From NCBI GenBank assembly GCA_964372045.1, contig CAYJPO010000012.1:517-64516 (forward strand): a stretch of 64,000 nucleotides of DNA. Reading direction: 5' to 3'. Under the pieces are notes generated by a model, which did not search any database, was not told the DNA's origin, and worked only from the letters and a program-made list of their open reading frames with translations. Positions 19,304-41,207 of the stretch are shown piece by piece; positions within the stretch are counted from its first letter, which is position 1, and every line of letters begins with the position of its first letter. Source of the stretch: an uncultured Anaerolinea sp. GTDB lineage: Bacteria; Chloroflexota; Anaerolineae; Anaerolineales; Villigracilaceae. The position numbers and the translations under genes were made by a program.

Positions 19304-19561
19304 GCAATATCGGATAATTTGGGTGATATAATCTTTAGTTATCTTATTATTCTATCCCTGTCATTCCAGCCCCATTGCTTCCATCAACAACAAGAATCAG
19401 GCGCCTTCGTCGTAGCTGCTGGTTCAAACCCTGGCATGGGATTTTTTTTTTACCTTTTGAAAAGTCCCTCATGAAGCGAAGGTAATCGAAAATGATACCT
19501 TCCAAGTCCAATGCCTCTTGTGCAAAAGGTTTATTCTCAAAGATCAACGATTGAGGTTCAG

Positions 19562-22500: not shown

Positions 22501-25500
22501 GGAGCAGGGCGTGACCGGAGTGCGGGTCGAGTTGTACCTGGATGCGAATACCAACGGCGTCTTCGACGGAGGCGACACGTTCCAATCGTTCGACACGACC
22601 GATGCGAACGGCTACTACCGCTTCGACAACCTGCCCGCAGGCGAATACGTGGTGGTCATCCCGACCACACAGTTCGGAACGGGCGGCGCATTGGACGGCT
22701 ATTGGAGCAGCGGCACGCAGATCTCGAACACCGGAACGGTGAGCGACAGTACCGCCAACGACGCGGACGCGGATCTGGACGACAGCGACGAGAACGGCAT
22801 CAGCACATTGACCGGCAACAGCTTGAACTATGTCTCTTCGGCAGCGGTCACGCTCGGACCGGGCAGCCTTGAACCGCTGAACGAACCGGATGCGCCGAAC
22901 GGACAGGGCGCAGTGGACGGACGCGGGAATATGACCGTGGACTTCGGGTTCTACCGTGTGGAAGTGGGCGACCTGGTGTTCGTGGACTCGAACGACGACG
23001 GCGATTACGACGCGGGCACCGACACCCCCTTGGCAGGCGCGTTGGTGCAGTTGTACGCTGGCGATGGAACGACCGAGATCATCACCGGCGCGGACGGCAT
23101 CCCTGGCACAGCCGATGACAGTTTTGGACCGGATGGCATCTCGGGCAATGCGGACGATAACACGGGCGGTGTCTTGACCCCAGCCAATGGCTTATATGAA
23201 TTCAGCGGGCTGCCCGCAGGCGACTATGTGGTGAAGGTCACCCCGCCGACGGGCTACGCCAGCACGCGCGACACGTCGGATGCGACCGACACGGGCAACC
23301 CGAACACGAACACGGACAACAACGACAACGGCGTTGGCACGGGACCGGGACAGGTCACGAGCAACGTGGTGACGCTGACCCCGGGCAGTACCGGAGCGCA
23401 GAACAACAACACAGTAAGCCAACCGACCGGCACGACCACCAATCCCACCGTGGACTTCGGGTTCACACCGCTCAACTATAGCCTGGGCAACCGGGTGTGG
23501 TACGACACGGACAACGACGGGCTGATCGACATCGGCACGGAGCAGGGCGTGACCGGAGTGCGGGTCGAGTTGTATCTGGATGCGAATACCAACGGCGTCT
23601 TCGACGGAGGCGACACGTTCCAATCGTTCGACACGACCGATGCGAACGGCTACTACCGCTTCGACAACCTGCCCGCAGGCGAATACGTGGTGGTCATCCC
23701 GACCACACAGTTCGGAACGGGCGGCGCATTGGACGGCTATTGGAGCAGCGGCACGCAGATCTCGAACACCGGAACGGTGAGCGACAGTACCGCCAACGAC
23801 GCGGACGCGGATCTGGACGACAGCGACGAGAACGGCATCAGCACATTGACCGGCAACAGCTTGAACTATGTCTCTTCGGCAGCGGTCACGCTCGGACCGG
23901 GCAGCCTTGAACCGCTGAACGAACCGGATGCGCCGAACGGACAGGGCGCAGTGGACGGACGCGGGAATATGACCGTGGACTTCGGGTTCTACCGTGTGGA
24001 AGTGGGCGACCTGGTGTTCGTGGACTCGAACGACGACGGCGATTACGACGCGGGCACCGACACCCCCTTGGCAGGCGCGTTGGTGCAGTTGTACGCTGGC
24101 GATGGAACGACCGAGATCATCACCGGCGCGGACGGCATCCCTGGCACAGCCGATGACAGTTTTGGACCGGATGGCATCTCGGGCAATGCGGACGATAACA
24201 CGGGCGGTGTCTTGACCCCAGCCAATGGCTTATATGAATTCAGCGGGCTGCCCGCAGGCGACTATGTGGTGAAGGTCACCCCGCCGACGGGCTACGCCAG
24301 CACGCGCGACACGTCGGATGCGACCGACACGGGCAACCCGAACACGAACACGGACAACAACGACAACGGCGTTGGCACGGGACCGGGACAGGTCACGAGC
24401 AACGTGGTGACGCTGACCCCGGGCAGTACCGGAGCGCAGAACAACAACACAGTAAGCCAACCGACCGGCACGACCACCAATCCCACCGTGGACTTCGGGT
24501 TTAGGACCAGCACCGGCTTGAGCAAGTCGATCATTGATACCTCTGAGACGTTCACGAGTGGTTATAACCTGGCGATCGGAGAGATCGTCACCTATGAAGT
24601 TGCTTTTGATCTGCCGGTGGGTGTCCCACTGAATAATGTTACGGTGACCGACCGCATGGACAGAGGTCTGGCATACGTCGATTGTTTGTTGGTGCAAGTT
24701 GCTGGAGTGAATCAGACCGGGACCGTTTGTCCGACGGCTGTGGTTTCATCGATCACCAACCCCGGCGATTCAGTATCCAATCCCGCCAACCCCGGCAGAC
24801 AGGTTCTATTCAACCTCGGGAATATTCCGGCTCAGGGCGGGGTGTCGGCGGTCATCATCCGCTATCGCGCCATCGTGCTGGATGTCATCGAGAATCAAGC
24901 TGGCGGAACGTTGAACAATGATGTCGTTTTTGCGTGGGACGCCGGTTCGTTCTCCACAAGTGCGCCGGATGTAACCATCGTTGAAGCGGAAATGAACATC
25001 GCAAAAACCGTAACACCTTCGACCAATGTTGCGATCGGTACGCCGGTTCAGTTCACGCTGACGATCGGGCACAGTGCCCAAAGCGGTACAGACGCATTTG
25101 ATGTTGTGGTCACGGATATCGTGCCGCCCAGCTTGCAATATATTCCCTGTACTATTCAATACAGTGGATTGGCTCCCACGACTCCGCCGGTGGGTTCTGC
25201 TTTTTGCCCTGGAGCGGCAACAGACCTGACCTTCGAGTGGGATGTGTTCCCGCGCGGTCAGACTGCCACCATTACCTTCAATGCCTATTTGTTGGTTTCT
25301 CCGGCGACGAATGTCGGCTCGGTGGCGTGGACTTCTCTGCCGATCAACCTGGATCAGAATGGGCTTCCGCAGCTGCTCTCGCTCCACAACGCCGAATCGA
25401 CCGAGCGTTGGTATGACCCAGGTGACCCGGTCAATGTGTACGGCATATCTGCCAGCGCGGCGATCAATGCGGTTCCAGGGGTCTCTGATGAGGAAGTTGA

Positions 25501-26053
25501 ATTGCCCGACGAACTTCCAGACACGGGCTTTGTTCCCGGGTCATCGATTTCCCTTCCCAGGAATCCCGAGGAAGCGGCATACAAACAGACCGGGGTATGG
25601 TTGGAGATCCCCAAACTTGGCGTGAACACTCCCATCGTCGGTGTGCCTTTATTAGATGATGACTGGGATGTTTCCTGGTTGGGGAATAGCACTGGCTGGC
25701 TGGAAGGTACTGCCTTCCCGTCCTGGCAGGGGAACAGTGTTGTGACCGGGCATGTGACCCTGCCCGCTGGGAATGATGGTCCGTTTGCGGCATTGGGCAC
25801 CCTTGGCTGGGGAGACCGGGTCATCGTCCATGCTTATGGAAGTGAGTACATTTATGAAGTGCGCCAGACCCGCACGGTCAGTCCGTTCAATACGACCGTC
25901 TTGCAGCATGAAGATGAAGCCTGGCTGACCTTACTCACGTGCAAGACTTACATCAAGTCAGCGGACACCTATCTCAGCCGCATCGCAGTCCGGGCTGTGC
26001 TGATCGATGTTCGGGAGGATGAAGCGCCGACTCCATCCGGCAGCATCCGTTAG
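19562..26053 (+). CDS. Giant secreted adhesin-like protein 1: signal peptide, proprotein-convertase P domain, SdrD-B domains, propeller-like region, DUF11/isopeptide domains, LPDTG, C-terminal sortase domain
   Basis: Hydrophobic N-terminus; DLNVGVNVAH..SD..VTLESP / GTWILRICD (P domain); about 6 GNRVW/GDLVF...DFGF SdrD-B repeats; LPDTG at 25514-25528; sortase His 25751, TLLTC Cys 25940, Arg 25979. Confidence 0.88.
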   Translation: MRFVSKIFSLLFIAVLLAGMVGIPNMIGRALSTSIDDIPGASIALADNSCAAPITRNIVVASSFIIADLNVGVNVAHDRRSDVRVTLESPSGTLVVLISGGGLGSPALASPDTYESYDVLLDDTSINSLYDNDADATIAPFYDRNARPFELLNTFKGEDAQGTWILRICDTLAGGAGGAIVEQYNRTQLNFTSADPNTISGTVFTDYNDNGLRGTGDLPVQGVTATAYDDTGAVVGTDVTDANGAYSLNIPDGTQVRIEFSTLPADLRPGAFGRDSGTTVQFVTSPAAGVDMGLVNPEEYCQNNPFLVMPCYINGDPLGGGSAGTLDVVVSIPNDAYGRTDATIERTLATGGQVGTTWGLAYQRSTHTVYAGALAKRHSGLGTLGSGGIYRIVVDPQTGLSTSVSSFIDITTLGIPVGSLPSNAARGLPAIANTPNTDPVWNEIGKAALGDLDIGADDDTLWLVNLADQSLYRLNDITAGPVTADGPYSVASALSGAGSVSPNACPAASDVRPWAVEVYKGEVYVGVVCTAETTQNVSDLRAYIIKTSEATPGTFTLAFEFALNYPRGVVSDTDGGYPAEWRPWSPTITSLCANPCATTNDLAFDGQIIYPQPILSDIEFDTSGDLILGLMDRTGHQTGNNNYATTVPWGTVTLYNKDTGYTPTVVNFAVDPAGLYEGAVAGDILRACLSGGVFVLENNATCGSITTGGNNSAPGQGPGNGEYYWQDMYPVTTDKDGGSHDEVTLGGLVLFPGTDEIAVSMYDPFAVRSGGISWFSNTTGVRTRAYEIFGVDSGGGSTTFGKAAGIGDIEGFCYGAPIEIGNRVWSDTNNNGIQEPSELPIAGVDVELLDSGGNVIATVTTDANGNYFFSSGPGTDSGNQEYLIPDLLPNSNYTVRIPNISGGSQQPALAGLSLSPNDTDADQRDSDATVSGTNAVIPITTGNPGENNHTYDFGFGNETYSLGNRVWYDTDNDGLIDIGTEQGVTGVRVELYLDANTNGVFDGGDTFQSFDTTDANGYYRFDNLPAGEYVVVIPTTQFGTGGALDGYWSSGTQISNTGTVSDSTANDADADLDDSDENGISTLTGNSLNYVSSAAVTLGPGSLEPLNEPDAPNGQGAVDGRGNMTVDFGFYRVEVGDLVFVDSNDDGDYDAGTDTPLAGALVQLYAGDGTTEIITGADGIPGTADDSFGPDGISGNADDNTGGVLTPANGLYEFSGLPAGDYVVKVTPPTGYASTRDTSDATDTGNPNTNTDNNDNGVGTGPGQVTSNVVTLTPGSTGAQNNNTVSQPTGTTTNPTVDFGFTPLNYSLGNRVWYDTDNDGLIDIGTEQGVTGVRVELYLDANTNGVFDGGDTFQSFDTTDANGYYRFDNLPAGEYVVVIPTTQFGTGGALDGYWSSGTQISNTGTVSDSTANDADADLDDSDENGISTLTGNSLNYVSSAAVTLGPGSLEPLNEPDAPNGQGAVDGRGNMTVDFGFYRVEVGDLVFVDSNDDGDYDAGTDTPLAGALVQLYAGDGTTEIITGADGIPGTADDSFGPDGISGNADDNTGGVLTPANGLYEFSGLPAGDYVVKVTPPTGYASTRDTSDATDTGNPNTNTDNNDNGVGTGPGQVTSNVVTLTPGSTGAQNNNTVSQPTGTTTNPTVDFGFRTSTGLSKSIIDTSETFTSGYNLAIGEIVTYEVAFDLPVGVPLNNVTVTDRMDRGLAYVDCLLVQVAGVNQTGTVCPTAVVSSITNPGDSVSNPANPGRQVLFNLGNIPAQGGVSAVIIRYRAIVLDVIENQAGGTLNNDVVFAWDAGSFSTSAPDVTIVEAEMNIAKTVTPSTNVAIGTPVQFTLTIGHSAQSGTDAFDVVVTDIVPPSLQYIPCTIQYSGLAPTTPPVGSAFCPGAATDLTFEWDVFPRGQTATITFNAYLLVSPATNVGSVAWTSLPINLDQNGLPQLLSLHNAESTERWYDPGDPVNVYGISASAAINAVPGVSDEEVELPDELPDTGFVPGSSISLPRNPEEAAYKQTGVWLEIPKLGVNTPIVGVPLLDDDWDVSWLGNSTGWLEGTAFPSWQGNSVVTGHVTLPAGNDGPFAALGTLGWGDRVIVHAYGSEYIYEVRQTRTVSPFNTTVLQHEDEAWLTLLTCKTYIKSADTYLSRIAVRAVLIDVREDEAPTPSGSIR
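22442..24501 (+). repeat. Near-perfect intragenic tandem duplication, period 1038 bp (346 aa, two SdrD-B domains)
   Basis: 22442-23463 versus 23480-24501; four synonymous differences seen in the first ~100 bp; alternate-frame ORFs in the track recur at +1038. Confidence 0.95.
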
Positions 26054-26455: not shown

Positions 26456-29400
26456 ATGAGGACTATCATGACTTCATTCTATTCATCACGTTCGCTCTCT
26501 CCGTATCACTTTTTTGTTACACTCCTATTCATTCTGACACAGGTGTTCGTATTTTCTCCGGCACAGGCATCGCCTGCGCCGGAACCGGTTGAACGACGAC
26601 CGTTATTTATGCCTGTGGCAGGAGTTGCCTTGGGAGTCCCAAGTGAAGTGTTCATCGGTCAGGAATTCACCTTTACAGCTTCGTTTTCCAACAATGCCAA
26701 TACTTCAGACGCTGATCCTGCCGACACCGGGTATGGTCCTTTCATTGACCTTGTCTTCCCGGTTACCGGCGTGGACGGCGACGATGGTATCGATTTTGTG
26801 AGTGCCAGTTATGGCGGTGCAGCGCTGCTTGGCTCACAGGTCTATGAAAACATTTTTCCGGATGACGATGGCATCGGACTCGGTACCACTGGATGTGTGC
26901 AACATCCCATTGCCGTTCTGGGCGCCAATGTGCCGCCTGTTCCGAGTGACGTGACACAGCCGCGCTACATGACGGTCTGTGGAACTGCGGGCGATAAACT
27001 GGTGACACTGGTCTTGCCCTTTGGTTCTTTCGTGCCGGGGCAACCCACCGCCGAAGTGACAGTTACCGCACAATTGAGTGACCTGGCGGATGTCAGCACT
27101 CCCTTGAACATCCAAGCGGCAGGTGGTTTCCAATATGGCGCGACCCCCACGAACGACTTTTGTTGTTCCCCGTTCGATGCGACCCTTTATAACGTTCCCA
27201 ACCCGGGCGATACTACCACCTGGCCCGGGAGTTCCGTTGAACCGATCATCATGACCCTTGCAAAGACATATGTCGGTCCAGAGAACGAAACCGCCACCGG
27301 ACCTAACTTCCCGCGCCAGTATCGGATCAGCGTGGATATTGCCGATGGGCAGACGGTAAGCAATTTGAACTTTGTGGATATCCTGCCGGATAATATTCAA
27401 TTCATCGGCATCGATTCGGTCACCGGCGGCAGTTATGCGGTCAACGGCAGTTTGCCATCCACATCCACCCCTGGCGGGACGCTTGACATCACCCTCGACA
27501 ATCCGGTCACGGGTACTTCGGGCAGTTCGGATGCGATTTTGTTATTTAGCTTCTACGTTGACCGGCTGGATGCAAGCAGTAACCCGGTTATAGACGCAAG
27601 CACGGGTGAACAAATCAACCCCACCAATAACAGCTCTTCTGCCAGCGGACCATGGGATCCGATCGATCCGCGTGATGATACCCTCCCTTTGCCGACCGCA
27701 TCAGGGGCATGTGCGCCCCCCTGTGTCGGCATTCAGGATGAATCCATTGCCGTGCAGAAAAGTGTGAGAAATATCACCGATGGCAGCAACAGCCCCGGTG
27801 ATGTTCTGGAATATACGCTTGAATTTCAGGTCTCGGATTTCTTTGGTTTTGAGGATGTCGTTCTGACCGATGTGATCTCGGATGGACAACGCTTCGACAC
27901 AGGATTCGCGCCCACGTTGGATTTTTCCGCCAACCCGGCTTCCAATGATTTCAGCGGCAACTTTGTACTGAATACCAATTACACAGTGGATAGTACAGAT
28001 ATAGGTAACACCGGTCCTGGTTGGCCTGCATCTGATGGAACAGACGGAACACAAACGATTACTTTCAATGTTTCAGGTTTGTTGGGAGAACAACTCCTGG
28101 GCGGGTGTGTGAATCCCACGGCAGCGAACAACCCGCCGGTCTGCACTGGAAGCGGTCCGTATGGAAATGACTCCACAGTCGGCACGATCCGCTTCCAAAC
28201 AATTATCCAGGATGAGTTCAGCGATGAATACCCATCCGGTGATGAATCTGTGGATCATGGCGATACCCTCGATAATAACGTGGATATTACCGGCACCGTG
28301 CTCGACCTGACGGATTACAGTCCGGTAACCGGTTTTGATACAGCCGCCGGTACGCCTGTGGACGACAGCGGCGCGGGTGTGACGATTGCCTTTGGCGGTT
28401 TGGTTAAATCCATTTACGCGGTTAATGGCAGCACCACCATTCCCGAGTATTTGACTCCAGGCGACGAGGTCACGTATTCCCTGACCTATACCCAGCCTGC
28501 CAGCGATTTTGAAGAGACTGTATTTACTGATTACCTGCCCCTGCCGGTCTATGATGCGAGTGAGATTACTGTGTTGAGTAATGCCGCCTGTGGTGGGACA
28601 TATCCGGCGGGCACGATCTGCCTTGGAAGTGGCGATACATTCCATACGACCTTCGCATCTGTCTGGGGGACGACCTACATCCCAACCCTGAGCGTTTCCC
28701 CCGCCGGAAACTCGTTCACGGTGACGTACCCAGAGTTTGACGACCTCAGCAATCGGAACACAATCATTGAATTAATGGTTACGGTCACGGTTCAGAATGA
28801 CCCCTTTGCTGACGGACTTTTCCTGACCAATCAGGCTGCCGCGCTAGAGGGCACCACCAATGCCGGCGATCAGAATGTTGATTCCATTATTCAGATCAGA
28901 TTAGGCGAGCCTGACCTGAGCACGTCGAAGACGGCGGTTTCCACCAGCCATACACCGGTGGCAGATGTTACCTTTGCGTCTGATGACCCGCTGGTCCCGG
29001 CTTCAAATTTGATCGTGGGACAATTTGCGTCGCCTGCCAACGCAGGTGTTCCATTCACGACCCCGCTTGGGTCGGACGATCTGAGCACCGATCCGGATGA
29101 TTTGACTCTTGCATTCAATCGTTTCAACAGCACCATGTTCGGCGTGGATGATCAAGATCTGGTCAAATATGCCATCCTGATCGAGAACCGCGGTCATAGC
29201 GCAAATGGCGGTTATGACATTGTCGTCTCGGATATTATGCCGCCGCAAATGGACTTTCCCGGCGGCGCTTCAGCCAACCTAAACCTCCAGCTTTATCGCG
29301 GCGATGGAGAACCATTGACATTTGCGGTCATCTATTTTGGCGGTGACGGCGAATACGGCGGCGGTGATGATATTGTCACGCCCGGCGATTCGACAAATGC

Positions 29401-32400
29401 TCACCTCATCTTCACATCCGGATACGCCATTCGTGTCAATGACCCGACTTCCGGCATTGATGCGGGCAAGGGTGCCTGTCAGGTGCATGAAGCCACCAGC
29501 GGCAGGAACGTCATCGTCATCACATATGACCTGCAAGTGGATGGCGACTACGACCCCAATACTATCATTGAGAATACGACCACGTTCCACAACTACGGTG
29601 GGACGGAGGGCGGACCCAATCACCTGCCCAAGCCTGAAGATGAGGATGCCAATATCGTTGTTGGAACACCATCCTTTGCACAAGGTGAAGGCAAGACCCT
29701 GCTCAGCACCGAATTGGACAGCGTGCTCACACCGGCAACTGTGACCGGCAATACCCGCACTCAGGCGGTGATCGGAGAACTCGCCACCTATGAGTTGGAG
29801 GTCAACCTGCATGAAGGCAGACTGCCCGCCGCGCAACTAGTGGACACGCTCGACGCCGGTCTTTCGTTTGTTCGGATCGATAGTGTTACTGTTTCTCCAG
29901 GTGTTACTGTACAAACGACTCCCGGCACTGGCACAATCCCCACAAATGTAACGATTGCCAGCGCCAATGGCGGGGTTGCCAATCAGTTGACCTACAATTT
30001 CGGGGATATCGTCAATGCCAATACCGATGACGCCGTGAACGAGACGATCACCATCGTCTATACAGCTGTGGTGAATAATGTTGGCACAAATCAGAGCGGT
30101 ACAGGTCTCAATAACAGTGCCCAATTGACTTGGGGTGGCGGTGGTTCCCTGCCTGCCATTACGTCCGAAGAAGTGATCGTCCTCGAACCTGTGATGACCA
30201 TTAACAAAGATACGGTTCCCTCCACCATTACCAGCCTGGATGCGGGCGATACCCTCGACTACAGAATTATCATCACAAACAGTGGCGCCACTGAAGCCTA
30301 CGATGTGACCTTCAGCGATCCGCTGCCGCAGTATTACGAATCTATTTCGATCACAGGTGTCAGCGGTACAGGCGGGGCGGCGCTCTCCGATTTTGAGATC
30401 GTCGGTTCGGGCACTTTCCCTGCTGATCCGTATATTCTCCAAACCACTGTCGCAGCCAACCTGGACTTGAATCCCGGCGAGACCATCATCGTCGATCTGC
30501 AAGGTACTCTTTCTAATTCCATTCCGCCAAGTTCAACATTGAGTAACACCGGCACCGTCATGTGGACGAGTTTGAATGGTAATGTTGTTGATCGTTCCAC
30601 GCACAACCCGGGAGAATCCGACGAACGCACGGGAACGAATCCGGTTGTGCAGCCCAATGATTACACAGCCAGCAGTTCTGTGGTGATCGATATCAGCAAT
30701 CCGCTGCTTCTGACCAAGTCCCTGATCGCTACATCTGAAAGCCACACGACCTTGAACGGCGGTACTGGTCTTGAAGATGTCGCCATCGGTGAGATCGTGC
30801 GCTATCGTCTGGCGGTGCGAATTCCAGAAGGCACCAGCCGCAACCTGCAATTCCAGGATCGTCTGCCCGCGGGCATGACCTTCCTCGATGATGGTACAGC
30901 ACGCCTATCCTTCGTCTCCGATGCCGCTGTTTTGGGAAGCGTCAGTTCAGCCGCATCTGGCGGCATTCCTGCCATTGTCTGCGCGAACGATGACGGTAGC
31001 TCTGCGGCAGCTGCCAGCATGACTTGTACCTTTGCAGACGATAATATATCCAATTCACTGGCGGGTTTTGACGATACATTCACATCCGGCAGAAACGTTT
31101 ACTTTAAGTTCGGTGATGTGACCAACAGCGAAAATGACCTGAACGACGAGTTCATCGTCGTGGAATTCAATGCCATCGTCGATAATGCAATTATCACCGG
31201 ACTGCCTTCCAGCCAGAACGATAATGGCGACACCCTGATCAATGATTTCGTTGCACACGAAAACGGTTCACCCTCACCTGTAGGTGTGAATTCGGACGAT
31301 ATCAACGTTACGGTACGCGAGCCGGTCATCAATAATGTGGATAAAGTGCTTACCGCGCCGATTCCCACCAGCTTTGACGCGGGCGATACCGTTTCCTTCA
31401 CCGTTGCCTTTTCAAATACCGGCTCGGTCGACGCCTTTGATGTGGTCTTGCGCGATACGCTTCATCCCGCCCTCGACCTGACCTCGGTTTCCGCTCCAAC
31501 GTATACATCCTGCTCCATCGTACCCACTGGGACGAATAACTCTGATACGGGTGCGGGCAATCTCGTTCAATACACCTTTGACCGGGTAGCTTCGAACTGC
31601 CAGATCAGCCTGACATACACTGCCAATATTTTGTATAGTGTTACCCCCGCTCAGGTTCTTACGAACACCGGCGTGGTGACCTATACCAGCCTTCCCGGAA
31701 CAAATGGCACCACCAGCAATCCCACTGGTTCCAGCGTCCCTGGCGCCAGCGGCACAGAGACTGGTGAACGCAATGGGACATACCCAACAATCATCGAGCC
31801 GAATGATTACATGCATTCGGACAATGCCCAGCTCACAATTGACAATGTTGTACCGACAAAATCCATTATCGCCACATCTGAAACTCATACCAGCGATGCA
31901 ACGGCAGATACAATTGTGGATCCGCGCCCCGTTGCTATTGGTGAGATCATGCGCTACCGCCTGGTGGTTCAAGTTCCCGAAGGCTCCAATACAGACTTGA
32001 CATTGACCGATCAGCTATCCACTGGCGTCACGTCTATTTTCGATACAACTACCGAGATCAGCACGTTGAACTTTGGGGCAGGCAATTTTGGCAGCCTCGA
32101 TTTCGGGGCTGCTTTGGAAGCCGCCAATGGGGTGACGGTTGACCTGTACAATGCGGGCGGGGCACCGCAATTTACCGCGCCGTTCAATTTAGTGACTCTC
32201 AACGGTTCGAACTTGCTGACCTTCAACCTTGGCGATATCGTCAACAACGACAACGATGCCAATGCGGAATACATCATCATCGATTTCAATGTCCTTGTGG
32301 ATAATGAGGGCGGTATTGATAATGGTGATGTCTTTGCGAATAATTTTGGTGTTTCAGTTAATTCGCGCCCCGTGGTTACCTCCAATACGGTTTATGCGCG

Positions 32401-35400
32401 GGTGAATGAACCGGCTATCACCAATCTCGACAAAACGGTCACGTCTGCGGGTCCGTATGATGCGGGCGATACGGTCAGCTATTCTGTGACATATACCAAT
32501 TCAGGCACATCCGACGCCTTTGAAGTGCAAGTCCTCGACGCCTTGAATTCGACCTACTTTACGATCAATACCGGCTCTGTCTCAGTGACTTCGGTTTGCG
32601 CAACCCTCCCGGCGACTGTGGTGACCTCGAGTAACACCGTCGATGTGACGGTCAGCCGTGTGCCGGTCGGTTGTGTGGTCACGATCACCTACTCGGCTGT
32701 CCTGACCACCTCGGTCAACCCAAGCACAAATTACCTCAACACTGCCAATATCACATACACCTCTCTGCCCGGCACGGGTACGACCGGCAACCCGACCGGT
32801 TCGAACACTCCCGGCGGGAGCGGCGCGGCGAATGGCGAACGTAATGGCGTAGGTGGTGTGAACGACCAAAACGATACCGATACCGCCCAGATCACCATCG
32901 CGGCGATCCAGCCGGAGAAGCGTATCATCGCAACCTCTGAGACGCACACCATCGACCCGGCGAATCCCACCAACATCCTCGTGGATGATATTTTAACAAA
33001 TCCGCGCCCGGTTGTGGTCGGCGAAGTGATGCGTTATCAGTTGGCGATGACTGTGCCCGAAGGCACCAGCACTGACTTTGTAATCTCCGACCAGCTTTCC
33101 ACTGGCGTCACACCGATCTTTGACGCGACCACTGAAATCCGCACGTTGAATTTCGGCGTACCATTCACGAGCGTTGATTTTGGCGCGCCATTGGCGGCAG
33201 CCAGCACCGGCACAGTTGACCTGTATAACGCTGGTGGGACTCCACAGTTCACCGCGCCGTTCAACCTGGTGACGCTCAACGGTTCGAACCTGCTGACCTT
33301 CAACCTCGGCGACATCGTCAACAACGACCTCAACGACGGCAACGCGGAATACATCATCGTCGAGTTCAATGTGCTGGTGGATAATGAAGCCGGTAACCAA
33401 AACCTGACCGTCTTCGACAACGACTTCACGGTTTCGATCAACGGTGCGACCAGCGGGACTTCCAACACGGTCTACCATCGCGTTGTCGAGCCGGTCCTTG
33501 CCACCACCAAGAACGATAACGACCCCGACGGCTGGGCGTACGGTCAGACCGTTACCTATACGGTTCAAGTTGCCCATGTCAGCGGCGATCCCACCCCAGC
33601 GGACAACAGCGCGGCAGATGCCTTCGATCTCGTCGTCACAGACACCATCCCTGCCGGGTTGACGTACGTGACCAATACAATGACCGCCCCTGCCGGTTGG
33701 ACGTTGGATCAATCCGCTGCTCCCATCCTGATCTGGCGCTGTACTTCACCCGTCTGTGCCATGACCTTGGCGGGCGGAGCTGTCAACCTGACTTATCAAG
33801 TGGTTGTCAATGATGTGACAGTCACCCCGCATATTGACGGAAACACAACCGTGACCAACACCGCCGTCACTACCTGGACTTCCCAGCCCGGCGCGGGCAC
33901 GACCGGCAATTCCACCGGCTCGAATACCCCTGGCGTCAGCGGCGCGACGGACGGTGAGCGCAATGGTTCAGGTGGTGTGAACGACTACACAGTGACCGTC
34001 AACCACACTGATGGTCTGGCTCCTTACTATGCGCTCGGCAATCGCGTCTGGTTCGATACGGACAACAGCGCCGACATCAATGGCGCGGAAGTAGGCGTTG
34101 GCGGCGTCCAAGTCCGCTTATATGAATCCGACGGCGTTACTCCCGTCTATGAACCGAATAGCGTCATTCCGCGTGTGACCACCACCAACGCCACCGGGTA
34201 TTACCTGTTCGATTATCTCGAACCGCGTGACTACATCGTGGTCATTCCAGCGGCAAACTTTGACAACACAGGTGTTGGCGATACCACCACCGCTTTAGTG
34301 GGTTATTGGTCTTCTCAAACATCCAGAGACGCCGCCGGAGCCATCATCGAAACTGCCGCGCCTGGTCCCAATAACGATACCGACTCGGACGATAACGGCA
34401 CTCGACAGGCAAGCGGCGATGTCGTCTCGCTTCCGATCACCATCGGTCCGGGCGAACCGACCGGGGAAGTTGCCCCAGGCGGACAGGGTGCCCAGCCCGA
34501 TGACCGCGCCAACATGACCGTGGACTTCGGCTTCTACAAGGTCGCCATTGGCAATCTTGTCTATGAAGACATCAATGCCAACGGAACCTATGACAACGGA
34601 ATCGACACCCCGCTCAATAACGTGCCTGTCGAGTTATTGTCCTCAACCGGTGTGCTCATCGAGTCGACGAGTACGAACGGAAGCGGGCTTTACTCCTTCG
34701 TGAACCACCCTGACGGCGATTACATCGTGCGCGTCACCACCCCGACGGGTATGGTCAGCACCATTGATACGTTTGCCGCCACCGATAACGCCAACCCGGA
34801 TAACGAACCCACCGGTGAAGTGGATGACAACGACAACGGCATCGGCATTGGCGCGGATACGCTCATCAATGTGTCCTCCGGCGTCCTGACTATGGACTCG
34901 GGTGAAAGCGGCAGTACTCCCGCCGTCATCACGGTGGATGACAACACCGGTACGACCACCGACACCGGGCTGGACTTCGGCTTTGTCTACCCGTACGCGC
35001 TCGGCAATCGCGTCTGGTTCGATACGGACAACAGCGCCGATATCAACGGCGTGGAAGTCGGCGTGGATGGTGTGCTCGTCACGCTCTATCACGCTGATGC
35101 ACTTGGCGTTGCCACCACACCGGTCACGGTCGGTGGCTTGCCTGTCAGCGATACGACTACGAACGGCGGCTATTACCTCTTTGACTATCTCAACCCAGGC
35201 AACTATGTTGTAGTTCTTCCGGCATCCAACTTTGCTGTTGGCGCTGTTCTCGAAGGCTACTGGTCATCGCAGACGTTTCGCAATGACACCACCGGAGCCA
35301 TCACCGAAACCCCCGCGCCCAATCCCGACCTCGGAGTCGATGGCGCAGTCGGCGGCGGCGATGACGATGAAGACTCGGATGACAACGGCACGCTCCAAAC

Positions 35401-38400
35401 CGGCGGCACGTTCAACGGAGCCGTGATCGCTCAGTCGGCCACACTCGGACCGAGCGGCAATACCGAGCCGACGAATGACAACGACCTTGAGACTGGCGTC
35501 AACCACGGCGATCAGCCCGATGGACGCTCGAACCTGAGCGTGGACTTCGGCTTCTACAAGGTCAGCGTGGGTAACCTTGTCTGGGCAGATGCCGACAAAG
35601 ATGGCGTCTATGATGCTGGCGAGCCGCTCTTCCAAAATGCGACAGTCTATCTCTATGCCGCGAATCCTACTACGAATGCAGTCATCGGCGCGGCGCTTGC
35701 TTCCACGACAACAGACATCAACGGCGTCTATAACTTCGATACCCTGCCCGAAGGCAATTACATTGTCGCTGTGGATGCGCCGGTTGGTACATTCAGCACC
35801 ATCGACTCGGCGGATACGATCACCCCGAACACCAATACCGATGATGCGGATAACGGCATCGGCGAGACTGGCGGAACGGTGTACTCGAACGCGGTCTTCC
35901 TCGAAGCAGGCAATGCCGGGATCAACAACGTTGTGGATGACGGCGCAGGTCCGCTGACGATCGACTTCGGCGCGACCTACAATCCCACCATGGACTTTGG
36001 CTTCACGCCGGTCTACTCGCTTGGCAACCGCGTCTGGTTCGATACCAACAACAACCGCATCATCGATAACTTCGAAGTTGGGGTGGATGATGTAGCCGTT
36101 CTACTTTACGATATTTCCGGCAATCAGATCCTTATTGGCGCGGACGGTATCCTTGGAAGTGCCGACGATGGCACGACCAACCCGGTGCTCACCGACAACG
36201 GCGGCTATTACCTCTTCAACGGACTTGAAGCGGGCGATTATGTGGTTGTCATTGCTGCGTCCAATTTTGTCAGCGGCGGTGAACTCGAAGGCTATTGGTC
36301 TTCTGAAACCCGCCGCGATACAACTACGGGTCTGGTCACCGAACCTCTGGCGCACTCGCCTGAAACGAGTCAGGACTCGGACGATAACGGCACGCTCCAG
36401 ACCAGCGGCGCATTCAACAATGCAGTTATTGCGCAGACAGTCACGCTGGGTCCAACCTTCAATGAACCTCAAAACGAAGGCAGCGTCGCTGGGGCACTCG
36501 ATGCAACCCTGCCCGGCAATCAGCAAGGTCAACCCGACGCGCAGGCGAACATGACCGTGGACTTCGGTTTCTACACCATCACCCTCGGTGACCTGGTCTG
36601 GATCGACACTGATAACAGCGGCACCGTCACAGGTGCAGAGGCTGGTATCGACGGCGTGACCGTTCATCTTTACCCGGTGAATGGTATTGGTGCGCCAGTC
36701 GGCTCACCTGTCATTGCCACCACTGCTGGCGGCGGACTCTATTCCTTCACCGGTCTGCCGCAGGGCAACTACATTGTCCACCTGCCCGATACTAACTTCA
36801 TGGGGGCGGCTGCCCTCCGCGATTACTATTCCAGCACCGGCGCGGGCAATCTCTACGAAGTACCGGCTGCTCCCAACCCCGATATTGTCACCGTCGATTC
36901 GGATGACAATGGCACGGAAGTCGGCACTCTCGGCTTCACTGGCGGTTATATCCAAAGCGGCATCTTTGCGCTCACGCCGACTTTTGAAGGTTCGTATGAC
37001 AATACCATCGGAACAACCAACGAACCGCGCGTAGACTTTGGTGTATATCGCAGTCCGCAGGTTAATCTCTCCATTGTCAAGACCGAAACGCCTGACAAGG
37101 GCTATTACCTGCAAGGTGAAACGACCACCTACTCCATCCTGGTCACCAACCACGGTCCGGCAGACGTGATCAACGCGGTCATTGACGACGCCATACCGCT
37201 CGATGGTTCCTCCAACCCGATGTTCACCGAATGGGACTGGGTATGCACTACCACTGGCGGCGCGACCTGCAATCCGCAGCTCAATTTGACCGGCGACTTT
37301 ATCGACACGGTCGATATGCCCTACGGCTCGACCATCACCTACACGGTCTCAGTGACCGTAGCCGGCACTGCCACGGGCACATTGGTCAACACTGCCACTG
37401 TCACAGCTCCTGCGAGCGTCACGGAAGGCAACCTGACGGATAATAGTTTCAGCGATACGAACAACCCCGCATCCATCACCATCACGAAGACAGATGGCTT
37501 GACCGTTGTTGCGCCGAACTCACCGCTGACATATACCATCACGGTCACAAACAATGGCGCGGTTGACCTTACCAGCCTCACAGTCACAGATACCCTGCCG
37601 GGTGAGGTGATCTTCCAAAGCGCGAATCCTGTACCCGCGACTGCCCCGGCTCCCAACACGCCGGGTGGAACGCTCACCTGGACGGGACTCAGCCTGCTCT
37701 CTGGCGCATCGACGGACATCTCGGTCACGGTTCTGGTCATCCCGACGGCGATCGGACCGAACCTCCTCAACTCTGTCACCGTCACCGATGCGAACACGAA
37801 TGCCACCGCCTCAGCGACAGATTCAGATGTCGTCGCCTGGGATAAGACCAAGGTTTTGGCTGGGACGAGCGAAGCCTTCACACCTGAGACGATCACACCG
37901 CCTTCTACACTTCGTCCGGTCGCCATTGGTGAGGTCCTTACTTACCAGATCAGCGTGGAAGTGCCTGCGAACTCGACCCTAACCAATCTCCGGGCGTTGG
38001 ATATCATGGATGCAGGCTTGGCATTCGTGCGCTGTGTCAGCATTGCGCCAGATGCGAATCTCACAACTGACCTGACGGGTGGGTTTGCGGCGGCTTGTAA
38101 TGCTCCATTTAGCCTGCTTGTCGGTCCAATCCCGAATCCGGTTATCTCGCGTGAACCGGTGGGTGATCCCAGCACGTACAATGACGGACGCCGGGTTGAT
38201 TTCAACCTCGGTAATGTCACCAACACGGATCTGGCGAACGTCCAAACCCTCACCATCACCTACGAAGCCATCGTGCTTGATATTCCGTCCAATGTGCAGG
38301 GCACCCCGGGTCTTGATAACGGGGTGACATGGTCGTGGCTGGGAGGCTCGCTTTCTGCTTCTGCCAACGCGGTCGAGATCAAAGAGCCTAAATTGAGCAT

Positions 38401-39406
38401 CTCCAAGACCGCCGACCCGCTCATTGCTGCGATCGGTTCGACAATTACGTTCACGGTGTCGATCGCACATACCCCTGATAGCGCTTTGGATGCCTTCGAC
38501 GTGGTCGTCACAGATGACCTACCCGAAGGGCTCACGTTGATCCCCGGCACGATCAGCTTTACCGGTCTGCCTGCGGATATCACCGACTTTGATACTGCAA
38601 CCGGCGTGCTCACATTCACCTGGCACACCTTCCCGTTGAGTGCGTCCAGCGTTATCACCTTCCAGACGACCTTCGTTGGACCGGCCCCGGTGACGAACGC
38701 CGCCAACGTTGCGTGGACAAGCCTGCCCATCGACCCGCAACCGCAACCGAGCGGTCCGCCGGTGTTACTTTCCACCTTCAATGACTTTGCCACCGAGCGT
38801 TGGTATGACCCGACAGACCTTACCGGTGTGAACGATTACGGTGTGAGTGCTTCCGTTGTCGTGAATGCACCGTCCGGCGGGAAGTGGCTGCCAAAGACCG
38901 GTTTTGCGCCGGATGTCATCACCGAACTCCCGCCCATGCCTGCGGACTTTGCCTACGCCCAAACCGACGTCTGGATCGAGATTCCAAAGCTCGATCAGAA
39001 ACTGACGTTGGTGGGTGTGCCGTTCAACAACGAGACCGGCGAGTGGGATCTGCGCTGGCTTGGAAGTGAAGCCGGCTGGCTGGAGTACACTGCCTTCCCG
39101 ACGTACTCCGGTAATTCTGCCATCACTGCCCACGCCACCCTGCCTACCGGCGAGGATGGTCCCTTCGCGCAACTGGACAGCCTCAGTTATGGCGACCAGA
39201 TCATTGTCCATATCAACGGTCAGCGCTACATTTATGAAGTGCGCGCGAAGCTCCAGGTACTGCCTGAGGCAGTCCGCTCCGTCCTCAAGCATGAAGAAAT
39301 TTCGTGGCTGACCCTCATCACGTGTAAATCCTATAACGAGAGGACAGGCGAGTACAAATATCGCAGTGTTGTGCGCGCCGTGTTGCTCACGGTTGAGGAT
39401 GAGTAA
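26456..39406 (+). CDS. Giant secreted adhesin-like protein 2 (4316 aa): signal peptide, many DUF11/isopeptide pilin-D2-like domains, 3 SdrD-B pairs, LPKTG, C-terminal sortase domain
   Basis: Signal ending in AQA; repeated xKS/xKT...IGE..xY...D.LP.G domains; YALGNRVWFDT at 34028, 34994 and 36014; LPKTG 38888-38902; sortase His 39131, TLITC Cys 39323, Arg 39362. Confidence 0.9.
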   Translation: MRTIMTSFYSSRSLSPYHFFVTLLFILTQVFVFSPAQASPAPEPVERRPLFMPVAGVALGVPSEVFIGQEFTFTASFSNNANTSDADPADTGYGPFIDLVFPVTGVDGDDGIDFVSASYGGAALLGSQVYENIFPDDDGIGLGTTGCVQHPIAVLGANVPPVPSDVTQPRYMTVCGTAGDKLVTLVLPFGSFVPGQPTAEVTVTAQLSDLADVSTPLNIQAAGGFQYGATPTNDFCCSPFDATLYNVPNPGDTTTWPGSSVEPIIMTLAKTYVGPENETATGPNFPRQYRISVDIADGQTVSNLNFVDILPDNIQFIGIDSVTGGSYAVNGSLPSTSTPGGTLDITLDNPVTGTSGSSDAILLFSFYVDRLDASSNPVIDASTGEQINPTNNSSSASGPWDPIDPRDDTLPLPTASGACAPPCVGIQDESIAVQKSVRNITDGSNSPGDVLEYTLEFQVSDFFGFEDVVLTDVISDGQRFDTGFAPTLDFSANPASNDFSGNFVLNTNYTVDSTDIGNTGPGWPASDGTDGTQTITFNVSGLLGEQLLGGCVNPTAANNPPVCTGSGPYGNDSTVGTIRFQTIIQDEFSDEYPSGDESVDHGDTLDNNVDITGTVLDLTDYSPVTGFDTAAGTPVDDSGAGVTIAFGGLVKSIYAVNGSTTIPEYLTPGDEVTYSLTYTQPASDFEETVFTDYLPLPVYDASEITVLSNAACGGTYPAGTICLGSGDTFHTTFASVWGTTYIPTLSVSPAGNSFTVTYPEFDDLSNRNTIIELMVTVTVQNDPFADGLFLTNQAAALEGTTNAGDQNVDSIIQIRLGEPDLSTSKTAVSTSHTPVADVTFASDDPLVPASNLIVGQFASPANAGVPFTTPLGSDDLSTDPDDLTLAFNRFNSTMFGVDDQDLVKYAILIENRGHSANGGYDIVVSDIMPPQMDFPGGASANLNLQLYRGDGEPLTFAVIYFGGDGEYGGGDDIVTPGDSTNAHLIFTSGYAIRVNDPTSGIDAGKGACQVHEATSGRNVIVITYDLQVDGDYDPNTIIENTTTFHNYGGTEGGPNHLPKPEDEDANIVVGTPSFAQGEGKTLLSTELDSVLTPATVTGNTRTQAVIGELATYELEVNLHEGRLPAAQLVDTLDAGLSFVRIDSVTVSPGVTVQTTPGTGTIPTNVTIASANGGVANQLTYNFGDIVNANTDDAVNETITIVYTAVVNNVGTNQSGTGLNNSAQLTWGGGGSLPAITSEEVIVLEPVMTINKDTVPSTITSLDAGDTLDYRIIITNSGATEAYDVTFSDPLPQYYESISITGVSGTGGAALSDFEIVGSGTFPADPYILQTTVAANLDLNPGETIIVDLQGTLSNSIPPSSTLSNTGTVMWTSLNGNVVDRSTHNPGESDERTGTNPVVQPNDYTASSSVVIDISNPLLLTKSLIATSESHTTLNGGTGLEDVAIGEIVRYRLAVRIPEGTSRNLQFQDRLPAGMTFLDDGTARLSFVSDAAVLGSVSSAASGGIPAIVCANDDGSSAAAASMTCTFADDNISNSLAGFDDTFTSGRNVYFKFGDVTNSENDLNDEFIVVEFNAIVDNAIITGLPSSQNDNGDTLINDFVAHENGSPSPVGVNSDDINVTVREPVINNVDKVLTAPIPTSFDAGDTVSFTVAFSNTGSVDAFDVVLRDTLHPALDLTSVSAPTYTSCSIVPTGTNNSDTGAGNLVQYTFDRVASNCQISLTYTANILYSVTPAQVLTNTGVVTYTSLPGTNGTTSNPTGSSVPGASGTETGERNGTYPTIIEPNDYMHSDNAQLTIDNVVPTKSIIATSETHTSDATADTIVDPRPVAIGEIMRYRLVVQVPEGSNTDLTLTDQLSTGVTSIFDTTTEISTLNFGAGNFGSLDFGAALEAANGVTVDLYNAGGAPQFTAPFNLVTLNGSNLLTFNLGDIVNNDNDANAEYIIIDFNVLVDNEGGIDNGDVFANNFGVSVNSRPVVTSNTVYARVNEPAITNLDKTVTSAGPYDAGDTVSYSVTYTNSGTSDAFEVQVLDALNSTYFTINTGSVSVTSVCATLPATVVTSSNTVDVTVSRVPVGCVVTITYSAVLTTSVNPSTNYLNTANITYTSLPGTGTTGNPTGSNTPGGSGAANGERNGVGGVNDQNDTDTAQITIAAIQPEKRIIATSETHTIDPANPTNILVDDILTNPRPVVVGEVMRYQLAMTVPEGTSTDFVISDQLSTGVTPIFDATTEIRTLNFGVPFTSVDFGAPLAAASTGTVDLYNAGGTPQFTAPFNLVTLNGSNLLTFNLGDIVNNDLNDGNAEYIIVEFNVLVDNEAGNQNLTVFDNDFTVSINGATSGTSNTVYHRVVEPVLATTKNDNDPDGWAYGQTVTYTVQVAHVSGDPTPADNSAADAFDLVVTDTIPAGLTYVTNTMTAPAGWTLDQSAAPILIWRCTSPVCAMTLAGGAVNLTYQVVVNDVTVTPHIDGNTTVTNTAVTTWTSQPGAGTTGNSTGSNTPGVSGATDGERNGSGGVNDYTVTVNHTDGLAPYYALGNRVWFDTDNSADINGAEVGVGGVQVRLYESDGVTPVYEPNSVIPRVTTTNATGYYLFDYLEPRDYIVVIPAANFDNTGVGDTTTALVGYWSSQTSRDAAGAIIETAAPGPNNDTDSDDNGTRQASGDVVSLPITIGPGEPTGEVAPGGQGAQPDDRANMTVDFGFYKVAIGNLVYEDINANGTYDNGIDTPLNNVPVELLSSTGVLIESTSTNGSGLYSFVNHPDGDYIVRVTTPTGMVSTIDTFAATDNANPDNEPTGEVDDNDNGIGIGADTLINVSSGVLTMDSGESGSTPAVITVDDNTGTTTDTGLDFGFVYPYALGNRVWFDTDNSADINGVEVGVDGVLVTLYHADALGVATTPVTVGGLPVSDTTTNGGYYLFDYLNPGNYVVVLPASNFAVGAVLEGYWSSQTFRNDTTGAITETPAPNPDLGVDGAVGGGDDDEDSDDNGTLQTGGTFNGAVIAQSATLGPSGNTEPTNDNDLETGVNHGDQPDGRSNLSVDFGFYKVSVGNLVWADADKDGVYDAGEPLFQNATVYLYAANPTTNAVIGAALASTTTDINGVYNFDTLPEGNYIVAVDAPVGTFSTIDSADTITPNTNTDDADNGIGETGGTVYSNAVFLEAGNAGINNVVDDGAGPLTIDFGATYNPTMDFGFTPVYSLGNRVWFDTNNNRIIDNFEVGVDDVAVLLYDISGNQILIGADGILGSADDGTTNPVLTDNGGYYLFNGLEAGDYVVVIAASNFVSGGELEGYWSSETRRDTTTGLVTEPLAHSPETSQDSDDNGTLQTSGAFNNAVIAQTVTLGPTFNEPQNEGSVAGALDATLPGNQQGQPDAQANMTVDFGFYTITLGDLVWIDTDNSGTVTGAEAGIDGVTVHLYPVNGIGAPVGSPVIATTAGGGLYSFTGLPQGNYIVHLPDTNFMGAAALRDYYSSTGAGNLYEVPAAPNPDIVTVDSDDNGTEVGTLGFTGGYIQSGIFALTPTFEGSYDNTIGTTNEPRVDFGVYRSPQVNLSIVKTETPDKGYYLQGETTTYSILVTNHGPADVINAVIDDAIPLDGSSNPMFTEWDWVCTTTGGATCNPQLNLTGDFIDTVDMPYGSTITYTVSVTVAGTATGTLVNTATVTAPASVTEGNLTDNSFSDTNNPASITITKTDGLTVVAPNSPLTYTITVTNNGAVDLTSLTVTDTLPGEVIFQSANPVPATAPAPNTPGGTLTWTGLSLLSGASTDISVTVLVIPTAIGPNLLNSVTVTDANTNATASATDSDVVAWDKTKVLAGTSEAFTPETITPPSTLRPVAIGEVLTYQISVEVPANSTLTNLRALDIMDAGLAFVRCVSIAPDANLTTDLTGGFAAACNAPFSLLVGPIPNPVISREPVGDPSTYNDGRRVDFNLGNVTNTDLANVQTLTITYEAIVLDIPSNVQGTPGLDNGVTWSWLGGSLSASANAVEIKEPKLSISKTADPLIAAIGSTITFTVSIAHTPDSALDAFDVVVTDDLPEGLTLIPGTISFTGLPADITDFDTATGVLTFTWHTFPLSASSVITFQTTFVGPAPVTNAANVAWTSLPIDPQPQPSGPPVLLSTFNDFATERWYDPTDLTGVNDYGVSASVVVNAPSGGKWLPKTGFAPDVITELPPMPADFAYAQTDVWIEIPKLDQKLTLVGVPFNNETGEWDLRWLGSEAGWLEYTAFPTYSGNSAITAHATLPTGEDGPFAQLDSLSYGDQIIVHINGQRYIYEVRAKLQVLPEAVRSVLKHEEISWLTLITCKSYNERTGEYKYRSVVRAVLLTVEDE

Positions 39407-39419
39407 AAACTGGTAGTGT

Positions 39420-39459
39420 AGAGTGCGGAGTTGCCAAAAACAATTCCGCACTCTCTTTA
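39420..39459 (+). terminator. Intrinsic terminator after adhesin 2
   Basis: Stem agagtgcggagttg/caattccgcactct followed by ctttat. Confidence 0.8.
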
Positions 39460-39475
39460 TAAGCATGCGGTGATT

Positions 39476-39636: not shown

Positions 39637-39691
39637 GATACGGTGACAAGTCCCACTATTTTATTGTGACCGCGCTGGGTATAATTGGCTC

Positions 39692-41078: not shown

Positions 41079-41207
41079 GACGCCATTATACCTGCTGGTA
41101 TGGCTTTTGATGGGTTCTAAAGGGACGGAATTCCCCCAACGTAATCGGTTATACTCATGCGAGTTTCGTAATGATTCTCTAACCAATCATCTCAAGAGGC
41201 AAAAGGT

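Follow-up and report, generated by a model that had tools for sequence, protein, structure and literature searches.

How is a secreted surface protein sorted when its sorting motif and a sortase follow one another in the same chain? The question is raised by a gene for a 4316-residue protein in a 64,000-nucleotide stretch of DNA from an uncultured Anaerolinea sp. of the Chloroflexota (assembly GCA_964372045.1, contig CAYJPO010000012.1, positions 517 to 64,516; henceforth the window). For 25 years, sortases have been studied as separate membrane-anchored enzymes acting in trans on membrane-held substrates, the anchor normally being an N-terminal signal-anchor or, in class C, a C-terminal transmembrane (TM) segment. 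By contrast, the C-terminus of the giant protein reads ...SGGKW-LPKTG-FAPDVITELPPMPADFAYAQTDV-WIEIPKLDQ...TLITC...YKYR...TVEDE, with LPKTG 172 residues from the end and the sortase core running from WIEIPK (38972) to TVEDE and the stop codon (39404-39406; Table 1). We consider it slightly better than an even bet (a probability of about 0.55) that these last 172 residues, comprising motif, linker and sortase, form a portable C-terminal cis-sortase cassette, in which signal and enzyme share one chain and act for a single turnover.

A sortase domain without a membrane anchor

The C-terminal domain of the giant protein is a member of the sortase family (PF04203, MEROPS C60) by sequence, fold and catalytic residues. 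The protein scores 77.4 bits against PF04203 (cutoff 26.6; range over the tests 72-77) and passes the generic sortase model TIGR01076 with 47.7 bits (range 42-48; cutoff 39.35). A first-pass annotation of this DNA, made from the letters and translations alone, had called the domain a sortase and had placed the LPKTG motif, the 23-residue linker, the catalytic His, Cys and Arg and the TVEDE end; the PF04203 match agrees with the call, and the translation bears out every coordinate.

The same annotation had seen neither a TM helix nor a basic tail, and this too holds. The highest 19-residue Kyte-Doolittle (KD) mean in the last 185 residues is 0.65, the C-terminus (...LLTVEDE) is acidic, and no hydrophobic segment that could anchor the sortase lies in or near the domain. 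Elsewhere in the protein, KD windows above 1.6 start only at residues 14-20, the core of the signal peptide (maximum 1.78, window from residue 18; the region reads ...FFVTLLFILTQVFVFSPAQA ahead of the cleavage site, with SP following), and at residue 50, where residues 50-68 make up one borderline hydrophobic window besides the signal peptide. All of these windows are N-terminal, and the last ends some 4100 residues before the sortase domain.

Between signal peptide and motif, Pfam and NCBIfam models identified six SdrD_B, six DUF11 and three TIGR04226 domains along with DUF7507 and DUF7619, while the N-terminal ~400 residues had no Pfam match at E<=0.01. TIGR04226 describes an isopeptide-forming fimbrial domain of the RrgB type, and a GramPos_pilinBB match was found as well. 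In fibrillar adhesins, DUF11/CLIPPER domains make up isopeptide-bonded stalks (PMC12617251), and the giant protein, with its tandem stalk domains behind a signal peptide, has the build of such an adhesin.

The passenger holds a second LPxTG (LPGTG, residues 2104-2108, 32765-32779) within a recurring linker, TSLPGTxGTTxNPTGS. Neither F-A-P nor a sortase domain follows it, and it is compatible with chance; by composition, about 0.24 LPxTG would be expected in a protein of 4316 residues. For the C-terminal LPKTG a chance origin is excluded, because the motif keeps the same distance to the first strand of the sortase barrel (beta1) in 381 of 386 homologous modules and is followed by a near-invariant F-A-P.

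Table 1. Coordinates in the window of the giant protein, its upstream paralogue and a hairpin downstream
Feature	Coordinates	Strand	Basis or remark
Gene of secreted giant surface protein, 4316 residues	26456..39406	+	Open reading frame (ORF) list, translation, Pfam/NCBIfam matches
Predicted Sec signal peptide, residues 1-38 (...FSPAQA, then SP)	26456..26569	+	Cleavage site placed by eye
Passenger stalk: SdrD-B-like, DUF11/CLIPPER and RrgB-like isopeptide domains	26570..38887	+	Pfam/NCBIfam
LPKTG sorting motif, residues 4145-4149	38888..38902	+	Presumed scissile bond Thr4148-Gly4149
Linker FAPDVITELPPMPADFAYAQTDV, 23 residues (4150-4172), F-A-P directly after motif	38903..38971	+	Conserved in homologues
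Sortase domain, residues 4173-4316	38972..39403	+	PF04203, AlphaFold2, Foldseek
Catalytic His4226 codon	39131..39133	+	Triad kept in family
Catalytic Cys4290 codon, within TLITC	39323..39325	+	Triad kept in family
Catalytic Arg4303 codon, 13 residues past Cys4290	39362..39364	+	Triad kept in family
Paralogue, 2180 residues, secreted; P-domain and SdrD_B repeats; same C-terminal cassette	19511..26053	+	Sequence matches
LPDTG of paralogue, residues 2002-2006	25514..25528	+	Sequence
23-residue linker of paralogue, FVPGSS...KQTGV	25529..25597	+	Sequence
Paralogue sortase domain: His2081 (25751), Cys2144 (25940), Arg2157 (25979)	25598..26050	+	PF04203, 75.8 bits
Hairpin, 14 nt past stop codon, 14-nt arms, 93% complementary	39420..39454	+	Terminator-like

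The same module ends many unrelated secreted proteins

The gene directly upstream encodes a second protein with this ending. The two cassettes of the window (172 and 179 residues) have 90 identical positions in a global alignment, the sortase core of the paralogue scores 215 bits against the hidden Markov model (HMM) of the family, and no TM segment follows its LPDTG (highest 19-residue KD mean 1.0). Inside this paralogue, a near-perfect tandem duplication of 1038 bp (22439-24514; 98-100% identity across the 300 nt compared) leaves the protein with a pair of all but identical SdrD-B blocks, each of ~346 residues; it represents either a very recent duplication or a collapse or expansion in the assembly.

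A search with the last 250 residues of the giant protein returned 71 relatives, and nearly all of those reaching far enough carry [L/I/M]PxTGFAP 23-24 residues ahead of beta1. Scanning species-representative genomes with an eight-sequence alignment as query then gave 198 loci with a relative, the best 80 of which we analysed. They come from ~70 genomes labelled Anaerolineae, Anaerolineales or Chloroflexota, except for one metagenome-assembled genome labelled Thermodesulfobacteriota, which was probably mis-binned. The 96 sortase-bearing ORFs in these 80 loci range from 220 to more than 3500 residues, and every one of them stops 24-37 residues past the catalytic Cys. The motif is xPxTGFAP in 83 of the 96 and a near variant in the other 13 (LPxTGFEP, LPxSGFAP, LPNAGFAP, LLTGFAP or LVSGGFGFAP). 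Tandem pairs and triples of cassette genes are common and display distinct motif variants, such as LPATG beside IPVTG or, in the window, LPKTG beside LPDTG.

We also ran a profile search against 1.84 billion cluster representatives (clusters at 50% identity), which yielded 1434 clusters at E<=1e-30. Among the 150 best clusters, the module is present in all, and the match ends within ~10 residues of the C-terminus in 147. Cassette-bearing proteins measure 287 to 5482 residues, the full-length members compared all begin with similar signal peptides, and the passengers are mutually unrelated (DUF11, SdrD_B, ice-binding-like, TIG, VWA and FctA/SHIRT). Since the family is large, C-terminal, located behind signal peptides and joined to mutually unrelated passengers, its distribution suggests a portable C-terminal module that behaves as a generic sorting cassette. 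What had been taken for the feature of one giant adhesin is thus shared by proteins of very different size, the neighbour gene included. Databases name the family members 'sortase', 'LPXTG-site transpeptidase family protein' or 'large repetitive protein', and the first two of these names hide both the passenger and the fusion.

Pooling all searches gave 416 unique homologous modules, 386 of which extend to the motif. In 381 of the 386, xPx[T/S/A]G[F/Y/W] stands at a fixed distance from beta1: the motif Gly and the beta1 Ile lie 24-28 residues apart, and 26-27 in 92% of the modules. Position by position, the 386 modules retain P in 385, T in 377, G in 385, F in 381, A in 356 and the second P in 371, and the linker has further conserved positions (T, L-P, Q-P and Y). 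The His/Cys/Arg triad is kept in 410 of the 416. Conservation of LPxTG upstream of the sortase in homologues had been set beforehand as a test of the proposed arrangement; the motif is conserved, with a linker that is constant to within a residue or two.

The fusion is likewise continuous in independent data. Over 38400-39504, contigs of two sediment metagenomes are identical to the window, and contigs of two activated-sludge metagenomes show substitutions only, with no indels or stops. Together with the 96 continuous ORFs in independent assemblies, these four metagenomes rule out an assembly artefact and a hidden stop or frameshift that would separate the sortase from its passenger. Metatranscriptome contigs from compost and activated sludge (85-99% identity) span 38347-38743 and 38987-39471; related strains thus appear to transcribe the 3' end of the giant gene, although this is weak evidence, as DNA carry-over is possible.

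Several members depart from the common pattern. In one subfamily (L030 1-2866, L033 2-1601 and L053 0-3066), a poly-Gly tract followed by LVSGGFGFAP stands where LPxTG would be, the catalytic Cys motif is kept, and in every case a gene with a normal cassette follows directly downstream. Another member (P0168; L082 4064-7210) has an FctA (Spy0128-like pilin)/SHIRT passenger and two tandem cassettes, LPRTGFAP followed by a degenerate LPKMGYSP; the gene calls around it resemble pieces of one larger frameshifted gene. Short entries (140-440 residues) were considered as stand-alone sortases and rejected: the one that was checked (P0026, in L081) is the tail of a longer ORF, and the others begin within the linker or the passenger. 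That longer ORF (L081 4466-11164, 2232 residues, in a 1-Mb contig) contains two in-frame stops, TAA and TGA, that divide it into three gene calls; decay to a pseudogene, an error in sequencing or read-through might account for them. Two proteins of 287-289 residues (P0174 and P0182) are genuinely short and full-length, consisting of a signal peptide, a stub, LPxTG and the sortase.

Two further motifs were seen outside the cassette. The first, S-x-[F/Y]-N-x-x-[S/A]-T-E-R-[W/R/F]-Y-D-P, lies ~30-40 residues ahead of LPxTG (in the window at 38765-38830: FNDFATERWYDP); it occurs only in members with DUF11-type passengers and is therefore part of the last passenger domain and not of the cassette. 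The second, [S/T][L/F/V/Y]PA[E/Q][I/M]NKxF[T/S/D]P, directly follows the predicted signal-peptide cleavage site in many full-length members (P0078, P0087, P0091, P0112, P0115, P0126, P0127, P0167, P0206 and P0209).

The cassette sortase is nearest to classes C and E

The first-pass annotation had described the sortase as class F-like, and this label was rejected. The class F model NF033748 gives 25.9-31.7 bits against a cutoff of 166, whereas the models for class C (NF033745, 45.4-51.1 bits, the best of all classes) and class E (NF033747, 39.8-45.7 bits) score higher, each of them below its own cutoff of 160; the model for class GN sortases reaches 26-33 bits (cutoff 158). A single, distant family fragment bears the NCBI name 'class F sortase, partial'. 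Judged by sequence and predicted fold, the cassette sortase is best placed in an unclassified clade, closest to the sortases of class C (pilus-specific) and class E.

AlphaFold2 modelled the cassette with a predicted local distance difference test (pLDDT) score of 84-86 and a predicted template modelling score of 0.78-0.82. Foldseek matched this model with probability 1.00 to many solved sortases of classes C, E, D and A (target-normalised TM-score 0.52-0.78), the top ranks being taken by pilus-specific enzymes (5k9a, 6bwe and 2xwg) and class E (the 9iok family; also 5cuw), and the predicted domain has the eight-stranded beta-barrel of the sortase fold. Similarly, a profile search of PDB sequences was led by the class C sortases 24rr, 7d6p, 6ixz and 2w1j.

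Class C sortases bear a lid, considered a pseudo-substrate, that fills the groove where the LPXTG peptide would otherwise lie (PMC3493515). The DP[F/W/Y] motif of this lid is absent before beta1 of the cassette, and LPKTGFAP occupies that region. The only alignment that extended to the linker set the lid GLDPF of E. faecalis SrtC (24rr_A) on the cassette TGFAP. Because the class C lid sits there, solved structures offer a precedent for a segment 24-30 residues before beta1 that occupies the groove of its own enzyme. When 40 upstream residues were included in the AlphaFold2 prediction, LPKTGFAPDV, which takes in the motif and the first five residues of the linker, had a mean pLDDT of 90 and residues 20-33, just ahead of it, were below 50; the motif is therefore predicted to be an ordered part of the domain and not a free tether.

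A proposed model for sorting in cis

If the cassette acts in cis, the giant protein would be exported by Sec through its N-terminal signal peptide, and the cassette, as the last part to exit the translocon, would fold at the membrane surface. The conserved linker would pack onto the sortase barrel and keep LPxTG near the active site, at the place where class C enzymes carry their pseudo-substrate lid. Cys4290 would then attack the Thr4148-Gly4149 bond, so that a thioester links the passenger to the Cys and the sortase domain starts with a new N-terminus, GFAP.... An amine would resolve the thioester and thereby fix the passenger covalently; it could come from the stem peptide of peptidoglycan, from lipid II, or from a Lys in a different envelope protein or a second copy. 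The ~19-kDa sortase domain, spent after a single turnover, would then be released.

The scheme explains why the module is strictly C-terminal and lacks a hydrophobic and basic tail, why its spacing is fixed and its triad conserved, and why it occurs behind any passenger. We favour action in cis because a motif that merely has to be found by a separate enzyme needs no fixed distance to a sortase, and the missing tail is accounted for because a cassette of this kind has no need to search for its enzyme. Engineered sortase-LPETG fusions cleave themselves (PMC4658790), which shows that such chemistry is feasible when enzyme and motif are fused. The proposal that the giant protein sorts itself had already been made in the first-pass annotation. 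It is supported in part: the fixed distance to beta1, the conservation of the linker and the pLDDT of 90 are all in keeping with a motif held on its own sortase.

Whether a sortase or a substrate of the classical kind accompanies the cassette was addressed by running the sortase-core HMM on all ORFs of the window and the 80 loci, which together amount to 1.38 Mb, or ~20 kb per genome. All 100 matches belong to the cassette family. Within this 1.38 Mb we found no stand-alone sortase and no substrate with LPXTG, TM segment and basic tail; the rest of the genomes may hold some.

A number of points weigh against the cis model. We infer that cleavage takes place, in cis and not between copies, that a thioester forms, that an acceptor takes over the passenger and that the sortase domain is released. 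When only 10 upstream residues were included in the prediction, the residues through the Pro of LPKTG fell below a pLDDT of 50, with order beginning at about the Lys/Thr of the motif, and the predictions speak to the order of the LPKTG segment only, leaving aside the proximity of Thr4148 to Cys4290. The HMM alignment sets the Pro of the class C lid on the Pro of F-A-P and not on that of L-P, and in the resting state the groove might accordingly hold F-A-P instead of LPxT. A few members with a degenerate motif (LVSGGFGFAP, LPKMGYSP or LLTGFAP) retain the catalytic Cys, and stand-alone sortases or classical substrates may exist beyond the ~20 kb searched per genome. Finally, access to lipid II is not assured for an enzyme that lacks a membrane tether, and hydrolysis, which amounts to simple release, is an equally simple outcome.

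Alternatives to the cis model

Four other readings were weighed, given here in descending order of probability. The first two differ from the cis model only in what resolves the thioester. Under the first, which we regard as unlikely, the sortase cuts the LPxTG of another copy or of a tandem partner and joins it to a Lys or an N-terminal amine, producing covalent fibres or a cross-linked layer. Such fibres would suit the kinship of the enzyme with pilus-polymerising class C sortases, its nearest relatives in sequence, the RrgB-type isopeptide pilin domains (TIGR04226) and GramPos_pilinBB match in the passenger, and the frequent tandem pairs and triples with their distinct motif variants. In another filamentous Chloroflexota organism, moreover, polar filaments are built from a giant DUF11 protein of 6596 residues (PMC13319060). 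Many members also share the Lys-containing PAEINKxFxP right after the signal peptide, and this Lys is a candidate acceptor for ligation between copies. However, this motif is absent from both proteins of the window, no pilin motif was identified, and the fixed linker of 23-24 residues and the predicted order of the motif fit an intramolecular arrangement better.

A second reading, improbable in our view, makes the cassette a C-terminal autoprotease: water resolves the thioester, which frees the passenger or removes a pro-domain for folding or secretion, and nothing is attached. Sortases slowly hydrolyse their substrates when a nucleophile is lacking, and with no membrane anchor nothing keeps the acyl-enzyme near lipid II. 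Engineered sortase fusions serve as self-cleaving tags (PMC4658790), and the window also encodes an exopolysaccharide/biofilm cluster (see below). Against mere release, a transpeptidase with a fully conserved triad is a costly means for one cut, an unanchored adhesin of 4316 residues would be lost to the medium, and passengers that are isopeptide-stabilised stalk adhesins normally need a fixed anchor (PMC12617251).

It is also possible, though we give it little credence, that LPxTGFAP is never cleaved and only gates the active site, so that the fused sortase acts in trans and the passenger serves as a scaffold or address. The segment does lie at the lid position, with the DPF of the lid aligned to A-P-x of the cassette; class C lids are uncut pseudo-substrates (PMC3493515), and the motifs of a few members (LPKMGYSP and LVSGGFGFAP) should resist cleavage. 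A lid, however, needs far less than the motif provides, which is a complete canonical substrate that includes the scissile T-G (of the 386 modules, 377 have the T and 385 the G), and a true substrate parked in the active groove would be cut. The 1.38 Mb of window and loci, as noted, hold no trans substrates with a classical signal, and this reading implies that more than 1400 unrelated passengers each have a private enzyme for some other client.

That a separate membrane-anchored housekeeping sortase encoded elsewhere cuts the LPxTG, the fused domain having replaced the hydrophobic and basic tail or taken some other role, is compatible with a search spanning ~20 kb around each gene and yet highly improbable: the triad kept in 410 of 416 modules argues for an active fused enzyme, a soluble domain cannot stand in for the classical tail in keeping a substrate at the membrane, and the fixed spacing would be left without explanation.

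Genomic context and envelope

Among the recurrent neighbours of the cassette loci there is no conserved partner or acceptor gene. The neighbours that recur (aminotransferase, ROK, CofD, GAPDH, PGK, TIM and kinases) are housekeeping genes and therefore reflect synteny rather than a dedicated system.

The first-pass annotation had also considered that the acceptor may be unusual, on the premise that many Anaerolineae have incomplete peptidoglycan pathways. We saw no support for this premise. The window encodes on its minus strand (4361-6844) an 826-residue protein with a GH25 muramidase domain, four SH3_3 domains and a NAGPA phosphodiester glycosidase domain, a wall-remodelling enzyme that implies a peptidoglycan-type wall, and a related locus encodes LytR-CpsA-Psr and VanW/PG_binding_4 proteins. 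Nothing in the window or the related locus suggests a wall-less organism. In the filamentous Chloroflexota relative with polar filaments, additional layers of the envelope cover the peptidoglycan (PMC13319060).

Farther along the window, an exopolysaccharide/biofilm cluster (46193-58176) comprises a sugar transferase, PIG-L deacetylases, GT2 enzymes, a Wzy-type polymerase and a flippase, together with a Wzz-GGDEF fusion, a BcsB-like protein and a polysaccharide deacetylase.

The flank immediately past the giant gene begins with the hairpin of Table 1, for which the T-tract rule of the terminator scan gave no match. It is followed by a 167-bp element (39473-39639) bounded by 20-nt terminal inverted repeats, ATTATGGCTGTAGCAAAGTC and GACTTTGCTACAGCCATGAT. 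The depth of metagenome contigs over this element is 2-6x that over the flanking gene and many contigs break at 39475/39476, which fits a repeat resembling a miniature inverted-repeat transposable element. The gene directly downstream (39692-40279, plus strand) encodes a small TIR_2-domain protein with homologues in nine related loci; in one of them (L001), a cassette-bearing gene flanks the homologue on either side. The minus strand at 40329-41186 codes for a protein that combines NYN RNase and LOTUS/OST-HTH domains.

Comparison with known sorting systems

The cassette shares with the classical system of S. aureus SrtA and its LPXTG substrates the enzyme family, the fold, the His-Cys-Arg triad with TLxTC, and an LPxTG near the C-terminus of secreted stalk-type surface proteins with signal peptides. 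It differs in uniting enzyme and substrate, the enzyme replacing the hydrophobic segment and basic tail, in the lack of a membrane anchor on the enzyme, in an enzyme that could turn over no more than once on its own motif, and in the near-invariant F-A-P after this motif. Class C sortases are its best sequence matches and among its best fold matches, and they too have a conserved Pro-containing segment 24-30 residues before beta1. Unlike them, the cassette has no DP[F/W/Y], no flanking helices and no TM anchor; it carries a complete, potentially cleavable LPxTG, and the enzyme is attached to the C-terminus of its passenger.

Among engineered proteins, sortase-LPETG tags resemble the cassette in that sortase and LPxTG lie in one chain and the fusion cuts itself (PMC4658790). 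The order of parts is different: sortase-LPETG-cargo releases Gly-cargo, whereas the natural cargo-LPxTG-sortase would leave the cargo on the Cys, poised for transfer. The natural linker is, in addition, short, conserved and predicted to be ordered. Hedgehog/Hint C-terminal domains attack the junction at their own N-terminus, hold the passenger as a (thio)ester, pass it to a nucleophile in a single turnover and are then discarded. This is the same autoprocessing logic as proposed for the cassette, with an unrelated fold and chemistry: an N-S acyl shift at the first residue, as against direct attack by a sortase Cys 141 residues past the scissile bond. Finally, PEP-CTERM/exosortase (PMC1569441), the C-terminal domain of the type IX secretion system and the class GN 'marine' sortase system, whose dedicated substrate is encoded next to the enzyme, likewise rely on a short conserved module at the C-terminus, one that recurs within a lineage on many secreted proteins with no other relationship. 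In all three the processing enzyme is separate and membrane-embedded or membrane-anchored, whereas in the cassette it is part of each substrate.

We found no description of a natural LPxTG-sortase fusion in the full-text literature, a search that left most subscription-journal papers uncovered; this agrees with the first-pass annotation, which knew of none.

Tentatively, and at somewhat less than even odds, we suggest that Anaerolineae and related Chloroflexota have an unrecognised sorting system in which each surface protein brings its own disposable cis sortase to ligate the passenger to the wall or to envelope proteins, in place of a membrane sortase and a retention signal. If so, the class C lid and the in-chain substrate would be two states of one N-terminal segment, one derived from the other, and the cassette would give a handle on the nature and origin of class C lids. 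For protein engineers, confirmation would supply self-activating, enzyme-free cassettes of ~170 residues, in many natural variants, for ligation or self-cleavage. For biology, it would add a self-contained, single-turnover form of surface display to the known sorting systems, and would explain how giant adhesins and stalks are attached to the multilayered envelopes of the filamentous Chloroflexota that abound in sludge and sediment.

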